Positions 26,254 through 34,700 of a stretch of 64,000 nt of DNA are shown piece by piece. The position numbers were made by a program, and so were the translations under genes. Position 1 is the first letter of the stretch. Each line of letters begins with the position of its first letter. This DNA comes from Escherichia coli. GTDB lineage: Bacteria > Pseudomonadota > Gammaproteobacteria > Enterobacterales > Enterobacteriaceae. The DNA is taken from assembly GCF_036507355.1 (NCBI RefSeq), contig NZ_AP027877.1; one strand, 5' to 3'. The notes under the pieces were generated by a model. The model had not been told where the DNA came from. It saw nothing but the letters and a program-made list of their open reading frames with translations, and searched no databases.

Positions 26254-26396
26254 TGTTAATTCCTGATTCAGGTGTGATTTTCCCTATGCCAGATGGATAA
26301 TTAGCGCACAGAGACTCACGAAATATTTTTATTAAATACGGTTGAATATATTTTTTAGTTCGGCGGGGGAGGATATTCCCGCCGAAATATTATTGC

Positions 26397-27155
26397 TTAT
26401 GCCTGATGTAAAATAGTTAATACTGTGCGCAAATCATTTACCGAGATTTGCCCTGGCGCAGAGGCTTTTTTTACCGCACCAAAAGTTGCCGCCGAGCCAA
26501 ATACTTCACCAGCCAGACGAGAAATTACGCCAGTTTTTGCCATCGACATCGTGATGATTGGACGATCGGCATACTGCTCCTGCATCTCCAGGGTCGCGGC
26601 AAGCAACGTCAGCACATCGCTGGTACTTTGCGGCATCAGCGCAATCTTAGGAATATCGGCGTCGAAGGATTGCATTTTGCGCAGACGGGCAATGATTTCT
26701 TCGGCTTCCGGCGTTTTATGGAAGTCATGGTTGGACATGACAACTTTCACATCATGCGCGTGGGCGTAGGCGACGGTTTCTTTAACCTGATCATCGCCGG
26801 TAAATAACTCCAGATCGATCATATCAACCAGGCCGCTGTCGATGGCTGCACGATTGAGTGCAATATAAGCCTCGGTGGAAATCGCCTGCTCGCCGCCTTC
26901 TTTGGCACTGCGGAAGGTAAACAGCAGCGGTTTTTCTGGCATGGTTTCACGGAGAATTTTTGCCGCCGCCATGACAGACTCCACATTGGAGAGGTCGGCA
27001 AAGTGGTCCACACGCCATTCCAGAATATCAAAGTCCGCTTCACGATAGGCGAGAGCTTCGGATTTCACGCGGGCGATATCTTTCGCCATCAGCGAGACGA
27101 TGATTTTAGGTGCGCCCGTACCAATGACGAGATCTTTTACAGTTACGGTTTTCAT
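26397..27155 (-). CDS. aroD: 3-dehydroquinate dehydratase (type I)
   Basis: 252-aa [39 protein letters not shown]... Confidence 0.93.
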
Positions 27156-27185
27156 TTTTTACCCTTTCTGCACGCGGTCAGCCTG

Positions 27186-28052
27186 TCAGGCACCGAACCC
27201 CATGACCTGTTTAACATATTCCAGAGGGAAATCTTTGCCAGTCCATAACGTGAACTGTTCAGCCCCTTGCCACAACAACATGCCGTATCCATCAATCGTT
27301 TTGCAACCAGCTTGTTGCGCCTGCCGCAATAACTTCGTCATATGCGGGTTATACACGCATTCAGTGACCAGCAGTCCCGGATGTAACAGACTGATATCAT
27401 TAACTAATGATTCATTCTCAAGGGGTTTCATACCCACTTTTGTGCCATTGGTTAAAATGTCGGCGGAAGCCAGGGCTTCAGCAAAGGCTTGCTGATCGGC
27501 GAGATCGGTAACCGTGACGACACAATCGGTGTTTTCGTTAACCCGCTGCGCGAAGGCGAGGGCTTTATCGAAGAACTCATCCCGACGGTTAAAGAGTTTA
27601 ATTTCTTTTAAACCTTCAATTGCCCCCTGCGCGCCAATCGCCGTTGAGGCACCTCCGGCCCCTAACAGCACCATCGTTTTGCCTTTGATATCAAAACCGC
27701 TCTCTTTAATGGCGCGAATATGGCCCGTGCCGTCGGTGTTATAGCCACGCAGATAGCCATCATCATTAACGATGGTGTTGATGGCACCCACCAGTTTGGC
27801 TGCTGGCGTTAATTCATCAACATATTCACACGCCAGTTGTTTGTTCGGCATTGATACGCCAGTTCCGCGCATTTTTAGAGCTTTTAATCCTTCAATTGCT
27901 CCGGGAAAGCTATCGTTATCCACTTCGAAGGCCATATAGGTAAATGGCAATCCCGCTTTTTCTAAGGCTTTATTCTGCATTTCAGGCGATAAACTGTGGC
28001 GGATAGGATAAGCCATCAACCCAATCAATTCGTATTTTGCGGTAACATCCAT
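27186..28052 (-). CDS. ydiB: Quinate/shikimate dehydrogenase
   Basis: 288-aa [39 protein letters not shown]... Confidence 0.92.
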
Positions 28053-28063
28053 AATTAACTCCT

Positions 28064-29065
28064 TTAACCTCTATGCTTAATTGTGTTTAACCGGGTGCTA
28101 AATTTGCGCTCGCCAAACCGCACATCATTCTCAGGAATAATAAAAACGCGGTAATAGCGGATAAAAACAATAATTGCGGTAATCAGGGCCAGCAGCGCGA
28201 AAGTAAAATCGAGAACAATGATATATTGCAGGCCGATGTTCGACAGATAACCGGTAATCAGCGGAATAACAAAGTTAGCCAGTCCACCCATCATCATATA
28301 AATACTGGTGACTTTGGCTTTGCTTTTTGGGAAAAACTCTGACATGACCGAAACACCGAGCTGTAAAATGCCGCCAGCTGCTGAGAAACCGATAACAAAG
28401 GCGCCGGCATTACACACCAGTGGAGAAGGGTACAGGTAGATAATGGCTGCTGTTATTGTTGCCAGTGCAGAGTTAAATACATTAGCCCAGATGGGCCGGA
28501 CCATTTTTTTCAGTAGTGCGGCAAAAATAAAGACACAGACCAACGAGCCCATACTGTAATAAGAGATGGTTTTTAATGCCTCAGCTTCTGACATACCAGC
28601 AAAAGCCATCGCATATTTGGGCATCCACACCACAATCACATAAAAGGTCGAGAATGCGGCTACACCGAACAGTACCGATGAAACACCTTCCAGCCAGACT
28701 AACGGTTTGCTGTTCATTTGCGGTAATTCATTAGCTACGCTGGCGTCCACCAACTGGCTGGGGAATTTGCTTTTCAACAGCATCAGCGTGATCAGTACAA
28801 ACAGAATACCCGGAATAATCAGCCCATAGCCGTACCAGATATTATTGAGCAACATATAGCTCACCAGCATTGGGTAGAACATTTGCCCGAATGACACCAT
28901 CGCTTTAACCAGTATGACCGCCGAACCAGAGGCTTTCGGAAAGCATTCCATGAGCGCGGGGTAGCCACCCGTATCCAGCGCTGAGTTAGCGATACCTACG
29001 CACACTGCCAGACCGTAGGCGAGAGTTAAATTCGGGCAAGCGGGAATACCAAAGAAGAATAGCAG
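28064..29065 (-). pseudogene. ydiN: MFS transporter ydiN, 5'-truncated by IS1 (C-terminal ~330 codons remain)
   Basis: The MFS reading frame runs without a stop straight into the IS1 left end at 29066 (...LLFFFGIPACPNLTLAYGLAVCVGIANSAL...); the track 'start' at 29005 is an internal GTG. Confidence 0.8.
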
Positions 29066-29120
29066 GGTGATGCTGCCAACTTACTGATTTAGTGTATGAT
29101 GGTGTTTTTGAGGTGCTCCA

Positions 29121-29396
29121 GTGGCTTCTGTTTCTATCAGCTGTCCCTCCTGTTCAGCTACTGACGGGGTGGTGCGTAACGGCAAAAGCACCGCCGGACA
29201 TCAGCGCTATCTCTGCTCTCACTGCCGTAAAACATGGCAACTGCAGTTCACTTACACCGCTTCTCAACCCGGTACGCACCAGAAAATCATTGATATGGCC
29301 ATGAATGGCGTTGGATGCCGGGCAACAGCCCGCATTATGGGCGTTGGCCTCAACACGATTTTACGTCACTTAAAAAACTCAGGCCGCAGTCGGTAA
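29121..29396 (+). CDS. insA: IS1 InsA
   Basis: 91-aa [43 protein letters not shown]... Confidence 0.95.
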
Positions 29397-29818
29397 CCTC
29401 GCGCATACAGCCGGGCAGTGACGTCATCGTCTGCGCGGAAATGGACGAACAGTGGGGCTATGTCGGGGCTAAATCGCGCCAGCGCTGGCTGTTTTACGCG
29501 TATGACAGGCTCCGGAAGACGGTTGTTGCGCACGTATTCGGTGAACGCACGATGGCGACGCTGGGGCGTCTTATGAGCCTGCTGTCACCCTTTGACGTGG
29601 TGATATGGATGACGGATGGCTGGCCGCTGTATGAATCCCGCCTGAAGGGAAAGCTGCACGTAATCAGCAAGCGATATACGCAGCGAATTGAGCGGCATAA
29701 CCTGAATCTGAGGCAGCACCTGGCACGGCTGGGACGGAAGTCGCTGTCGTTCTCAAAATCGGTGGAGCTGCATGACAAAGTCATCGGGCATTATCTGAAC
29801 ATAAAACACTATCAATAA
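29315..29818 (+). CDS. insB: IS1 InsB frame, expressed as the InsAB' transposase by -1 frameshift
   Basis: InsB reading frame; A6 slippery run at 29372-29377 inside the insA 3' end. The 5' boundary is frame-defined only. Confidence 0.85.
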
Positions 29819-29924
29819 GTTGGAGTCATTACCCAGCTTGCTGACGGCTTGAAGAGAGTCACAGTATCTTGTGCAACATTATTGGAAAGAGTGAGGGGCG
29901 AGGTAGCGAAGCGGAAAAATGTTA

Positions 29925-30029
29925 AAAAAAAGCCCATCGTGGGAGATGGGCAAAGACTACACACAGCAATTCGTTGTTTCACTCAGGGGATTTCCATGCT
30001 TATAAATCAATATGTTGATTTATAACCGT
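29925..30029 (-). ncRNA. rprA: Small RNA RprA (positive regulator of rpoS translation)
   Basis: Minus strand ACGGTTATAAATCAACATATTGATTTATAAGCATGGAAATCCCC...CCCACGATGGGCTTTTTTTT recognised as RprA, with -10 TACTAT at 30036-30041 and an intrinsic terminator. Confidence 0.85.
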
Positions 30030-30064
30030 GAGCTAATAGTAGGCATACGGACTTTTTGCGTCGA

Positions 30065-30078
30065 TCAGATTCGTCTCA
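30065..30078 (-). promoter_or_regulatory. RcsB box upstream of rprA
   Basis: Minus strand TGAGACGAATCTGA, about 36-49 nt upstream of the RprA 5' end. Confidence 0.6.
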
Positions 30079-30214
30079 TTAGTTTAAAAACTGTAAAGAA
30101 TTTGCGACAGGTACTACCAGCTGAATGGCGGTACGCAGGAAAATATGGGGAAGAGCAAGCAAATATCAATTAGCGGTGGTTAACAATCAGGCGGCAGAGC
30201 CGCCTGATGAGAAA

Positions 30215-31327
30215 TTACTTATTCGGTTTCTCGATTTCGCCAAGTTCTTCGAGAATTTCTTCCGGTTGGTCCGTCGGCGGCGGGACTTCTTCCACCCACG
30301 CGGCAAACAGACGCCAGGAAACGGCTAACAGAACCGGACCAATAAACAGACCGATCATCCCGAAAGCAATCAAACCACCAATAACGCCAGAGAGGATCAG
30401 GATCAGCGGTAAATCGGCACCCATGCGAATTAACATTGGGCGGATGACGTTATCCAGCGTGCCAACCACACCGCTCCACACTAACAATACCGTTCCCCAG
30501 GTGGTATCGCCGGTCCAGTAGAGCCAGATAATCGCCGGAATCAGTACCGGCAACGGGCCAAGCTGGACAAGGCAGGAGAGGATCATTAACACCGTTAGCA
30601 ACGTTGCATAAGGTACGCCGGATACGGCGAGGCCGATACCGCCAAGCACTGCCTGTACTAACGCCGTCACCACCACACCCAGCGCCACCGCGCGGATAGC
30701 CTGTGCCGCCAGCAGCACGGCGGCATCTCCGCGAACGCCTGCCAGACGGGTTGCAAAATGGCGAATGCCTTGTGCCACCTGTTCACCGCGCCAGTACAGC
30801 AGGGCACTGAAGAGAAGCATCAGCGCACAATGCACCATAAAGCGCCCGATATGCGCCGCTTGCCCAACGAACCAGGTGGTGGTGGTGCCAATATAAGGGC
30901 GGACTTTCGCCATGATCGCCGTCCCCCCCATATCCAGCAAGTTGTGCCAGCCTGCATATAGCTTCGCGCCAATCACCGGAATGGTATTAAGCCACGCCAG
31001 ATCGGGTAACGTCATGTCACCGCTGGAAATGGCTTTAATTAGCGGGCCGCTGCCGTCGACGATACTGTTAACCAGCAAAGCAATAGGGATGATAAACACC
31101 ATCACTAATAACAGTGTCATCACCAGAACGGCGAGAGAGCGGCGGCCAAACATGATCTTTTGCAAACGTAACAATACCGGCCAGGTGGCGATAACCACCG
31201 TACCGGCCCATGCAAAGCCGAGAATAAAGGGTTGAACAATCCACAGACATGCCACAATCATGATGGCTAAAAACAGCACCGAAAGCAGAATTTGTGCGAC
31301 ATCCCTGGGCTGACGAACATTTACCAT
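30215..31327 (-). CDS. ydiK: AI-2E (PerM)-family membrane transporter
   Basis: 370-aa polytopic membrane protein MVNVRQPRDVAQILLSVLFLAIMIVACLWIV... Confidence 0.9.
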   Translation of the reverse strand: MVNVRQPRDVAQILLSVLFLAIMIVACLWIVQPFILGFAWAGTVVIATWPVLLRLQKIMFGRRSLAVLVMTLLLVMVFIIPIALLVNSIVDGSGPLIKAISSGDMTLPDLAWLNTIPVIGAKLYAGWHNLLDMGGTAIMAKVRPYIGTTTTWFVGQAAHIGRFMVHCALMLLFSALLYWRGEQVAQGIRHFATRLAGVRGDAAVLLAAQAIRAVALGVVVTALVQAVLGGIGLAVSGVPYATLLTVLMILSCLVQLGPLPVLIPAIIWLYWTGDTTWGTVLLVWSGVVGTLDNVIRPMLIRMGADLPLILILSGVIGGLIAFGMIGLFIGPVLLAVSWRLFAAWVEEVPPPTDQPEEILEELGEIEKPNK

Positions 31328-31715
31328 AACTACTTTTCACCTTTTTTGTGCGTCAAATCGTCGACGCGACGTGAACACGCGAAACTCACCTGCATAATGA
31401 TGAGCAATTTCAGCGGTTTTTAACAGGCCGATTCTGCCCTTAATTCTGATGGGCGTGTTAGAAAAAAATGTGGTACAACAACTCAGGCAACACGCAAACG
31501 ATTTACTCGTCGTATTTCAAGTTGCATATGCTGCGGCTACGTTCGTTCACCCCAGTTACTTACTGTTGTAAGCTCCTGGAGTTCACTCGCTTGCCGCCTT
31601 CCTGCAACTCGAAATCCATAGAGTAAATAAACATCACCTTTCTGTGCGCTATTGCAGCCGCCTGAAAGAACAGTGTATCGACCTACATCACAGACCGCAG
31701 GAAAGGGTCAATATA

Positions 31716-34700
31716 ATGATTCCACAGATTTCCCAGGCACCCGGCGTCGTTCAACTGGTGCTTAATTTTTTGCAAGAGCTGGAGCAACAAGGTTTTACCG
31801 GCGATACGGCGACAAGTTATGCCGATCGTCTGACAATGTCGACCGACAACAGTATTTACCAACTTCTCCCCGATGCGGTGGTATTTCCGCGTTCAACCGC
31901 AGATGTGGCGCTGATCGCCCGTCTTGCCGCGCAGGAACGCTATTCATCGCTGATCTTTACCCCCCGCGGCGGCGGCACCGGCACTAACGGTCAGGCGCTC
32001 AACCAGGGGATTATTGTTGATATGTCCCGCCATATGAACCGCATCATCGAAATTAACCCTGAAGAGGGCTGGGTGCGCGTTGAGGCCGGGGTGATAAAAG
32101 ACCAACTCAATCAGTACCTGAAACCGTTCGGCTACTTTTTTGCGCCGGAACTTTCGACCAGCAACCGGGCAACGCTCGGTGGGATGATCAATACCGATGC
32201 ATCCGGTCAGGGATCGCTGGTCTATGGCAAAACGTCAGATCACGTACTTGGCGTACGCGCGGTATTGTTGGGGGGCGATATTCTCGATACGCAACCTTTA
32301 CCCGTCGAGCTGGCGGAAACGCTGGGTAAATCCAATACCACAATCGGGCGAATTTATAACACGGTTTATCAACGTTGCCGTCAGCAACGCCAGTTAATCA
32401 TCGACAACTTCCCCAAACTTAACCGCTTTCTTACCGGTTACGATCTGCGTCATGTCTTTAACGATGAGATGACCGAGTTCGATCTGACGCGCATTCTGAC
32501 GGGTTCAGAAGGGACGCTGGCCTTTATTACCGAAGCGCGGCTGGATATTACGCGCTTGCCTAAAGTGCGCCGTCTGGTGAACGTCAAATATGACTCTTTT
32601 GACTCTGCGCTGCGTAACGCGCCGTTTATGGTTGAGGCGCGGGCGCTTTCGGTAGAGACGGTGGACTCAAAAGTGCTGAATCTGGCGCGGGAAGATATTG
32701 TCTGGCATTCCGTCAGCGAGTTGATTACCGATGTGCCTGACAAAGAGATGCTCGGGCTGAACATTGTGGAATTTGCTGGTGATGATGAGGCGCTGATTGA
32801 TGAGCGGGTAAATGCACTCTGTGCGCGGTTGGATGAGCTGATCGCCAGTCATCAAGCAGGTGTCATCGGCTGGCAGGTGTGCCGTGAGCTGGCGGGGGTT
32901 GAACGTATCTATGCAATGCGCAAAAAAGCCGTTGGTCTGCTTGGCAATGCCAAAGGTGCCGCTAAGCCAATTCCGTTTGCTGAGGATACCTGCGTACCGC
33001 CGGAACATCTGGCCGATTATATTGCTGAATTTCGCGCGCTGCTCGACAGCCACGGCTTAAGTTATGGCATGTTTGGTCATGTCGATGCTGGGGTGTTGCA
33101 CGTCCGTCCGGCGCTGGATATGTGCGATCCACAACAAGAGATTTTGATGAAGCAAATCTCTGATGACGTGGTTGCGCTGACTGCGAAATACGGTGGTTTG
33201 TTGTGGGGCGAACACGGAAAAGGTTTTCGTGCCGAATACAGCCCGGCGTTTTTTGGGGAGGAACTTTTTGCAGAACTGCGCAAAGTGAAAGCGGCATTTG
33301 ACCCGCATAACCGACTCAACCCAGGGAAGATTTGCCCGCCAGAAGGTCTCGATGCGCCGATGATGAAAGTGGACGCGGTGAAGCGCGGTACATTCGATCG
33401 GCAGATCCCCATTGCGGTACGCCAGCAGTGGCGCGGTGCGATGGAGTGTAACGGCAACGGTTTATGCTTCAACTTTGATGCCCGTAGTCCGATGTGTCCG
33501 TCGATGAAGATCACCCAGAACCGGATTCATTCACCGAAAGGGCGCGCAACGCTGGTGCGTGAATGGCTGCGTTTGTTGGCGGATCGCGGCGTTGACCCAC
33601 TCAAACTGGAACAAGAACTGCCTGAATCCGGCGTCAGTTTGCGGACGTTAATTGCCCGCACGCGCAATAGCTGGCATGCGAATAAAGGCGAATATGACTT
33701 CTCACACGAAGTCAAAGAGGCGATGTCGGGCTGTCTGGCCTGTAAAGCGTGTTCGACCCAGTGCCCCATCAAAATTGATGTGCCGGAGTTTCGCTCTCGT
33801 TTTCTGCAGCTCTATCACACCCGTTATTTACGCCCGCTGCGCGACCACCTCGTCGCTACGGTCGAGAGCTACGCGCCGCTGATGGCACGCGCGCCGAAAA
33901 CCTTTAACTTCTTCATTAACCAGCCGCTGATGCGCAAACTCTCGGAAAAACATATCGGCATGGTTGATTTGCCGCTGCTGTCGGTCCCCTCGCTACAACA
34001 ACAAATGGTGGGGCATCGCTCGGCAAACATGACGCTGGAACAGCTTGAAGCTCTCAATGCAGAGCAGAAAGCGCGCACGGTGTTGGTGGTGCAGGACCCC
34101 TTTACCAGCTATTACGATGCGCAAGTGGTGGCGGATTTTGTCCGTCTGGTCGAAAAATTAGGTTTCCAGCCTGTGTTACTGCCATTTTCGCCAAATGGCA
34201 AAGCCCAGCATATTAAAGGTTTTCTTAATCGTTTTGCGAAGACGGCGAAAAAGACGGCGGATTTCCTCAACCGTATGGCGAAGCTGGGTATGCCAATGGT
34301 AGGCGTCGATCCGGCGCTGGTACTTTGTTATCGCGATGAATATAAACTGGCACTGGGCGAGGAACGTGGCGAGTTTAACGTCTTACTGGCGAATGAATGG
34401 CTGGCAAGCGCACTTGAGTCACAGCCAGTGGCTACAGTCAGCGGTGAATCATGGTATTTCTTTGGTCACTGTACCGAAGTTACCGCCTTGCCGGGTGCGC
34501 CAGCACAATGGGCCGCGATATTTGCCCGTTTTGGCGCGAAACTGGAAAATGTCAGCGTGGGTTGCTGCGGCATGGCAGGGACTTACGGACATGAAGCGAA
34601 AAACCATAAAAATTCGCTCGGGATCTATGAGTTATCCTGGCATCAGGCTATGCAGCGACTGCCGCGTAACCGCTGTCTGGCGACCGGATATTCCTGCCGT

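Follow-up and report, generated by a model that had tools for sequence, protein, structure and literature searches.

IS1-associated loss of ydiL, ydiM and the 5' end of ydiN in an Escherichia coli genome, with aroD probably transcribed from its own promoter within ydiB

In E. coli, Duncan et al. are said to have described aroD as monocistronic in 1986, and EcoCyc reportedly lists both a ydiNB-aroD unit and a promoter for aroD. In K-12 MG1655, the transcription start map of Kim et al. 2012 places the primary start of aroD inside ydiB, at NC_000913.2:1772595 (+), with 63 reads and a 5' UTR of 115 nt (PMC3415461 Table S1). It should be remembered that this map, obtained by terminator-exonuclease-enriched 5' RACE sequencing, covers one condition only (mid-exponential growth in M9 glucose); it gives no share of the aroD mRNA coming from read-through, and a conditional ydiB promoter lies outside its scope. 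For K-12 grown in this way, no start site is entered in the map for ydiM, ydiN or ydiB, nor do these genes appear in the supplementary data of Conway 2014, Yan 2018 or Mendoza-Vargas 2009. In the passages of PMC4585142 and PMC10588857 that cite Johansson & Liden 2006, ydiN, ydiB and aroD are reported to be co-induced under carbon limitation.

The second system relevant here is the insertion sequence IS1. As summarized in the review PMC9330008, intramolecular transposition of IS1 gives rise to deletions in which the remaining element is found without direct repeats (Turlan & Chandler 1995). The same review relates, from Prentki et al. 1986, that fusion promoters form at IS1 ends when a correctly spaced -10 is present in the flanking DNA.

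We compared these systems with a locus lying in a 64-kb stretch of E. coli DNA (hereafter, the window), where the ydiN-ydiB-aroD cluster has the same order and spacings as in K-12, the same aroD promoter string and the same ydiB Shine-Dalgarno sequence. Unlike the K-12 cluster, that of the window is deprived of the ydiN promoter and 5' end, of ydiM and of ydiL, and only the aroD unit is demonstrably preserved. Our overall explanation, to which we give a probability of roughly 85%, is that an IS1 deletion left behind a dead remnant of ydiN (ydiN'), with aroD on its own promoter and ydiB probably orphaned, and that it is one of many such events. The features of the locus are listed in Table 1.

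Table 1. Position, strand and supporting evidence of the features at the rearranged ydiN locus (window coordinates).
Feature	Position	Strand	Evidence
aroD (type I 3-dehydroquinate dehydratase), intact, 252 aa	26397..27155	-	ORF; Pfam DHquinase_I 260 bits, full profile
ydiB (quinate/shikimate dehydrogenase), intact, 288 aa	27186..28052	-	ORF; Pfam Shikimate_dh_N + SDH_C
aroD promoter region, start at 27270, in the ydiB 3' end	27270..27320	-	51-nt string (-50 to start), 0 mismatches vs K-12
ydiN-ydiB spacer, 11 nt, AGGAGTTAATT	28053..28063	-	Read from the sequence
ydiN' pseudogene, codons 89-421 + stop	28064..29065	-	Translation, K-12 alignment, Pfam
IS1, intact, 768 bp	29066..29833	+	Inverted repeats, Pfam, identity to annotated copies
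insA	29121..29396	+	Pfam
insB frame	29315..29818	+	Pfam
Residual rprA-ydiL intergenic region, 88 nt; right breakpoint at NC_000913.3 1770567	29834..29921	.	BLAST vs K-12
rprA small RNA, intact with terminator	29922..30029	-	Rfam RF00034, 118.5 bits, model 1-108
ydiK, intact; bounds the rearrangement on its far side	30215..31327	-	ORF, protein look-up

The break in ydiN was located by BLAST against the K-12 locus (NC_000913.3 1767500-1778000, numbered below as L001). The left flank ends at ydiN nucleotide 265, and ydiN' is an uninterrupted stretch of 1002 nt, that is 333 codons and a stop, which aligns to residues 89-421 of the K-12 YdiN protein (421 aa). Beyond this point, 2,208 bp of K-12 DNA (NC_000913.3 1770568..1772775; L001 3069..5276) are replaced by one copy of IS1; the lost DNA comprises ydiL, ydiM, the 226-bp ydiM-ydiN intergenic region, the ydiN promoter and ydiN codons 1-88. 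The initial annotation had described ydiN as truncated at IS1, its promoter and 5' coding region being gone; the K-12 alignment, the BLAST breakpoint and Pfam all bear this out, and the loss extends to ydiL and ydiM. At its far end, IS1 is fused to the stretch between rprA and ydiL, the joint being 88 nt past the 3' end of rprA, whose terminator hairpin is found at 29951..29932, with ydiK beyond. Elsewhere the window follows the order of K-12 throughout, at about 98.7-98.9% identity. Among the genes lost together with ydiN, ydiL codes for an Aca2/YdiL-like HTH protein (PF08965), and ydiM is reported in a 2023 study to be needed for an active bo3 quinol oxidase in K-12 (PMC10588857).

The element itself has the size (about 768 bp) and the terminal inverted repeats (about 23 bp) of IS1, its ends reading GGTGATGCTGCCAACTTACTGAT (the left inverted repeat, from 29066, present in a single copy in the window) and ATCAATAAGTTGGAGTCATTACC. 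Zn_ribbon_InsA, HTH_Tnp_IS1 and DDE_Tnp_IS1 are all matched over their full Pfam profiles, and the A6C -1 frameshift motif TTAAAAAACTC lies near 29370, within the overlap of insA and insB, giving the insA plus insB' arrangement. Identity reaches 99.6-99.9% with copies annotated as IS1A-family in E. coli C and YZ22MPE54. The left inverted repeat adjoins ydiN', so the transposase reads away from it. Direct comparison of the two flanks revealed no 9-bp target duplication (GAATAGCAG on the left vs CAGCTTGCT on the right); as the two 9-bp flanks differ, this is not a simple IS1 insertion, and the identity of the element is not in question. What is seen instead is one IS copy standing for contiguous reference DNA, between collinear and co-oriented flanks and without direct repeats, as in an adjacent deletion. 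The likeness to the deletions of Turlan & Chandler covers the single retained IS1, the missing 9-bp repeat, the one anchored end and the collinear flanks, and nothing mechanistically different is visible in the window.

As a side observation, the last 7 bases of IS1 (CATTACC, 29827..29833) match 6 of the 7 replaced K-12 bases CATTATC (L001 3069..3075). Similarity between target and IS end has been reported for IS1 hot spots; the likeness seen here may be of that kind, or may be due to chance.

The same locus was surveyed in 5,426 complete E. coli genomes, taken as raw genome counts in which relatives are counted separately. The ydiN promoter and 5' region are wholly absent from 102 of them. 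IS1 in the same orientation is present in or beside ydiN, at many positions, in 47, and a net rprA-ydiB deletion larger than about 720 bp is present in 83, with at least 25 distinct structures, nearly all of which involve IS1. Two neighbouring control loci of the same size, made of non-essential genes and not GC-matched, yielded 0 genomes (ydhS-ydhU) and 1 genome (punR-cfa); the GC content of the ydiL-ydiM-ydiN interval is 44%, vs about 50% in the controls and 50% in the window. This interval corresponds to window positions 28064..29921 and to NC_000913.3 1770568..1773788 in K-12.

Several of these genomes are close counterparts of the window. Strain LF3-1 has lost ydiL, ydiM and ydiN entirely, and 21 nt separate its IS1 from the ydiB that follows, which is intact, as is aroD; YZ22MPE54 retains only 183 nt of ydiN, and its aroD is intact; in EC20 and related clinical isolates (ST361-like), ydiM and ydiN are missing along with the 5'-most 300 nt of ydiB, yet aroD is retained together with the 3' part of ydiB that carries the aroD promoter; in E. 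coli C, ydiN is interrupted by a simple insertion of IS1, oriented relative to the gene as in the window. These strains and NH-21 resemble the window in having IS1 in or next to ydiN with aroD always intact, and differ from it in their breakpoints in every case. The exact junctions (L001 3068 joined to 5277) were found as a single-piece match in 0 of the 5,426 complete genomes, and the exact left junction had 0 matches in the genome contig collection. Our search of the searchable literature found no paper mentioning ydiN together with IS1.

Insertion sequence ends also cluster on the far side of the locus. A 36-bp segment of the 137-bp rprA-ydiL region (window 29834..29870; L001 3058..3093) contains four independent junctions: the IS1 described here (L001 3068), that of NH-21 (3059, exactly 9 bp off), an IS3-family element in O145:H28 RM12761 (3058-3063) and the IS1 of LF3-1 (3093).

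How did the deletion arise? The likeliest route would be the insertion of an IS1 in the AT-rich interval, followed by intramolecular replicative transposition, the so-called adjacent deletion. Alternatively, instead of transposition in one step, two IS1 copies in direct repeat, the first lying in ydiN and the second between rprA and ydiL, may have undergone homologous recombination. We regard recombination as a real possibility, held at less than even odds. Both sites are indeed hit by insertion sequences in other strains (on the rprA side, the IS1 of NH-21 is 9 bp off, the IS3-family element of O145:H28 5 bp off and the IS1 of LF3-1 25 bp off), IS1 occurs at various ydiN positions in many strains, and several genomes have two IS1 copies within the locus. 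Against it, a simple IS1 insertion at either exact junction occurs in 0 of the 5,426 complete genomes, and neither these genomes nor the species-representative genome collection yielded a relative of intermediate structure. Either route leaves a single intact IS1 without target-site duplication, so that the end product is the same for both.

By the adjacent-deletion route or by recombination, what is left of ydiN is probably without function. A functional MFS transporter has twelve transmembrane helices in two sets of six, motif A being located between the second and the third; ydiN' has lost TM1, TM2, motif A (GVISDKFGRRAVIL, residues 69-82) and half of TM3, and it matches Pfam MFS_1 only from position 71 of the 347-position profile. 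Reading from IS1 into ydiN', a stop codon is encountered at 29083..29081. The first in-frame start within the remnant is a GTG at 29005, which would give a product of 313 aa, and all in-frame starts show weak Shine-Dalgarno pairing (-6 kcal/mol at best). Given this weak pairing, and since any product would be devoid of TM1, TM2, motif A and half of TM3, a functional transporter made from ydiN' is very unlikely; the idea that internal GTG or ATG initiation could provide a useful truncated MFS protein thus finds no support. A truncated ORF of 313 aa is present on 7 contigs, and was set aside as the product of unrelated events (frameshifts or other breakpoints) distinct from this IS1 junction.

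The remnant is also young. Over its 1002 nt, ydiN' is 100% identical to the intact ydiN of O145:H28 strains, and window positions 26358..29065, from aroD to ydiN', are base-for-base those of O145:H28 RM12761 and of four other loci with an intact ydiN. This identity to strains with intact ydiN implies that the event is recent relative to the divergence, and that downstream of the junction there has been neither decay nor any compensatory or promoter-creating mutation. We infer that ydiN' is a recent, undecayed pseudogene that has lost its function and has neither a promoter nor a good ribosome-binding site.

The surroundings of IS1 deserve a remark of their own. Identity to RM12761 is complete over two tracts, 26358..29065 and 29932..32039, and the rest of the window differs by about 1%; over the 20-kb flanks, the best identity to any complete RefSeq E. 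coli is 98.9-99.3%. Judged by these sequence comparisons, the lineage is a mosaic around IS1 and is unrepresented among complete RefSeq E. coli.

We now turn to the genes downstream. The exact AroD protein allele occurs in 21,044 blocks of the collection index and the exact YdiB allele in 4,667; look-ups of the exact YdiB, AroD and YdiK proteins in the collection returned only common alleles in ordinary contexts. The DNA of aroD is 100% identical to that of strains with intact ydiN. Its promoter region lies 1.8 kb downstream of the IS1 junction, with putative hexamers TTGCAA (-35, 27306..27301) and CATGTT (-10, 27282..27277) separated by an 18-nt spacer. Since the start is mapped in K-12 and the promoter string is identical here, aroD expression should be independent of the ydiN promoter. 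In this strain aroD would still be transcribed from its own promoter within ydiB, the activity being presumed from the K-12 mapping. The initial annotation had supposed that any aroD expression depending on the ydiN promoter would now have to come from outward transcription of IS1 or from internal promoters: the internal promoter does exist, as the mapped K-12 start and the conserved 51-mer indicate, and the concern over aroD is largely answered.

This does not mean that the three genes are strangers to one another. They share one strand, with gaps of 11 nt (ydiN-ydiB) and 30 nt (ydiB-aroD) and no convincing terminator between them, and these short gaps without a predicted terminator make read-through possible. 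The spacing of 11 nt had been taken as a sign of co-transcription, a proposal that holds and with which the reported co-induction fits, as for an operon-type arrangement. The one feature at odds with a plain operon is that aroD has a promoter of its own.

A rival reading would have the loss of the ydiN promoter, or polarity exerted by IS1, lower aroD and ydiB substantially, making the strain a leaky or full aromatic auxotroph. One argument for it is genetic: the Keio ydiN deletion mutant is reported to show auxotrophy for shikimate and aromatic amino acids (Hu et al. 2009, PMC2672614), and both the ydiN and the ydiB mutants are reported to behave like aroD and aroA mutants by auxanography on glucose minimal agar (Fig. 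4J and Fig. S3 of the same study). The co-induction under carbon limitation related in PMC4585142 and the read-through allowed by the 11-nt and 30-nt gaps point the same way. The mapped aroD start and its conserved promoter speak against it, and so do natural strains: E. coli C carries ydiN::IS1, and its strain C-1a is described in PMC3571907 as a prototroph, with M9 glucose as growth medium; an intact aroD also accompanies deletions of comparable or greater size in at least 83 complete genomes, an expanded clinical clone among them. The high-throughput Keio data are, moreover, unreliable here, as growth on glucose minimal medium was recorded even for the aroD mutant (Baba et al., as reported in PMC4086706). 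Because the high-throughput data at this locus are inconsistent, we still hold the strong form of the concern over aroD, as an unlikely outcome.

For the auxotrophy reported for the Keio ydiB mutant, the simplest explanation is not a role of YdiB but that the deletion takes the aroD promoter with it. Measured from the 3' end of ydiB, the aroD start is about 85 nt into the gene. Keio deletions are said to remove all but the last few codons of a gene, and a ydiB deletion of this design would take away both the promoter and the start of aroD. This account does not cover the ydiN mutant, whose auxotrophy may reflect a contribution of the upstream context to aroD expression in K-12.

With aroD taken to be expressed from its own promoter, ydiB is the gene more exposed to the deletion. 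Its ATG at 28052 follows the ydiN stop TAA (28066..28064) with a Shine-Dalgarno sequence in the spacer (TAA-AGGAG-TTAATT-ATG), and since this site stands directly after the ydiN stop, ydiB translation is independent of coupling to ydiN. Transcription is another matter. Scans of ydiN' with a promoter consensus and a PWM gave background-level candidates only (the best, TTTATC-17-TATTAT at 28165..28137, scores 8.4, and such scores occur about once per kb per strand), and we claim no ydiB promoter there. As no start has been mapped for ydiM, ydiN or ydiB, it is plausible that ydiB was silenced, or its expression reduced, once the ydiN promoter was lost. The sole plausible upstream promoter of the operon being lost, expression of ydiB would be weak, if any, and its induction by carbon limitation is probably gone. 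Little cost would be expected, since the shikimate dehydrogenase of biosynthesis is AroE: on minimal medium, cells that have ydiB still cannot do without aroE (PMC4086706), from which it follows that YdiB does not carry the biosynthetic flux and that its loss should cost little.

Could IS1 itself have taken over? In this scenario, ydiN' and ydiB are driven by a hybrid promoter, with a -35 in the left repeat and a -10 in the flank, or by an outward promoter internal to IS1, and ydiB becomes constitutive. The arrangement is indeed that of the fusion promoters of Prentki et al. 1986, with a -35-like IS1 end (TTGGCA, 29079..29074, - strand) abutting a promoterless gene in the outward orientation, and a weak candidate, TGGAGC-18-TACACT (29120..29091), is found within IS1. 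Unlike in the fusion promoters, the flank has no acceptable -10 at 16-18 nt: the hexamers at this distance from TTGGCA are CTTCTT, TTCTTT and TCTTTG, with at most 2 of 6 positions matching TATAAT, so the junction forms no consensus hybrid promoter. The internal candidate scores 6.1, and sites with such a score occur about 3.8 times per kb per strand across the window; the consensus scan found 0 promoter-like sites on the minus strand from the junction to ydiB. Outward transcription from IS1 into ydiN' and ydiB, evoked earlier as a possible replacement for the ydiN promoter, is thus unsupported, and we think a constitutive ydiB quite improbable. Any read-through from ydiK or rprA would have to cross the strong rprA terminator and the entire IS1.

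Finally, a false join made by the assembly across IS1, which is a multicopy repeat and whose two junctions here were found in none of the other genomes searched, is a highly improbable explanation, given that the flanks are collinear, in the same orientation as in K-12 and only 2.2 kb apart, as fits a real local IS1 deletion, and that events of this class have many examples among complete genomes.

The window is thus a further case of IS1-mediated deletion and pseudogene formation, in which the mechanism and the element are known and the breakpoints are new to the collections searched. At this low-GC, dispensable locus of E. coli, IS1 has inserted or caused deletions independently many times, and the present case is one of them. 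IS1 prefers AT-rich targets, and this preference, added to the dispensability of the genes, is the simplest explanation for losses that are far more frequent than at the two control loci. We consider it doubtful that the ydiL-ydiM-ydiN interval is, beyond a tolerated insertion site, a target of recurrent and possibly selected IS1-mediated loss. If it were, the deletions would free ydiB and aroD from a ydiN promoter inducible by carbon limitation and would cost the cell two transporters linked to shikimate, and the window would be another independent instance of parallel evolution.

Under the IS1-deletion reading that we favour, there is little new biology in the event itself, which is ordinary genome decay. 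Its meaning for E. coli is that ydiN, ydiM and ydiL are dispensable in nature, and ydiB probably too, and that the promoter embedded in ydiB would insulate the expression of aroD from upstream rearrangements.
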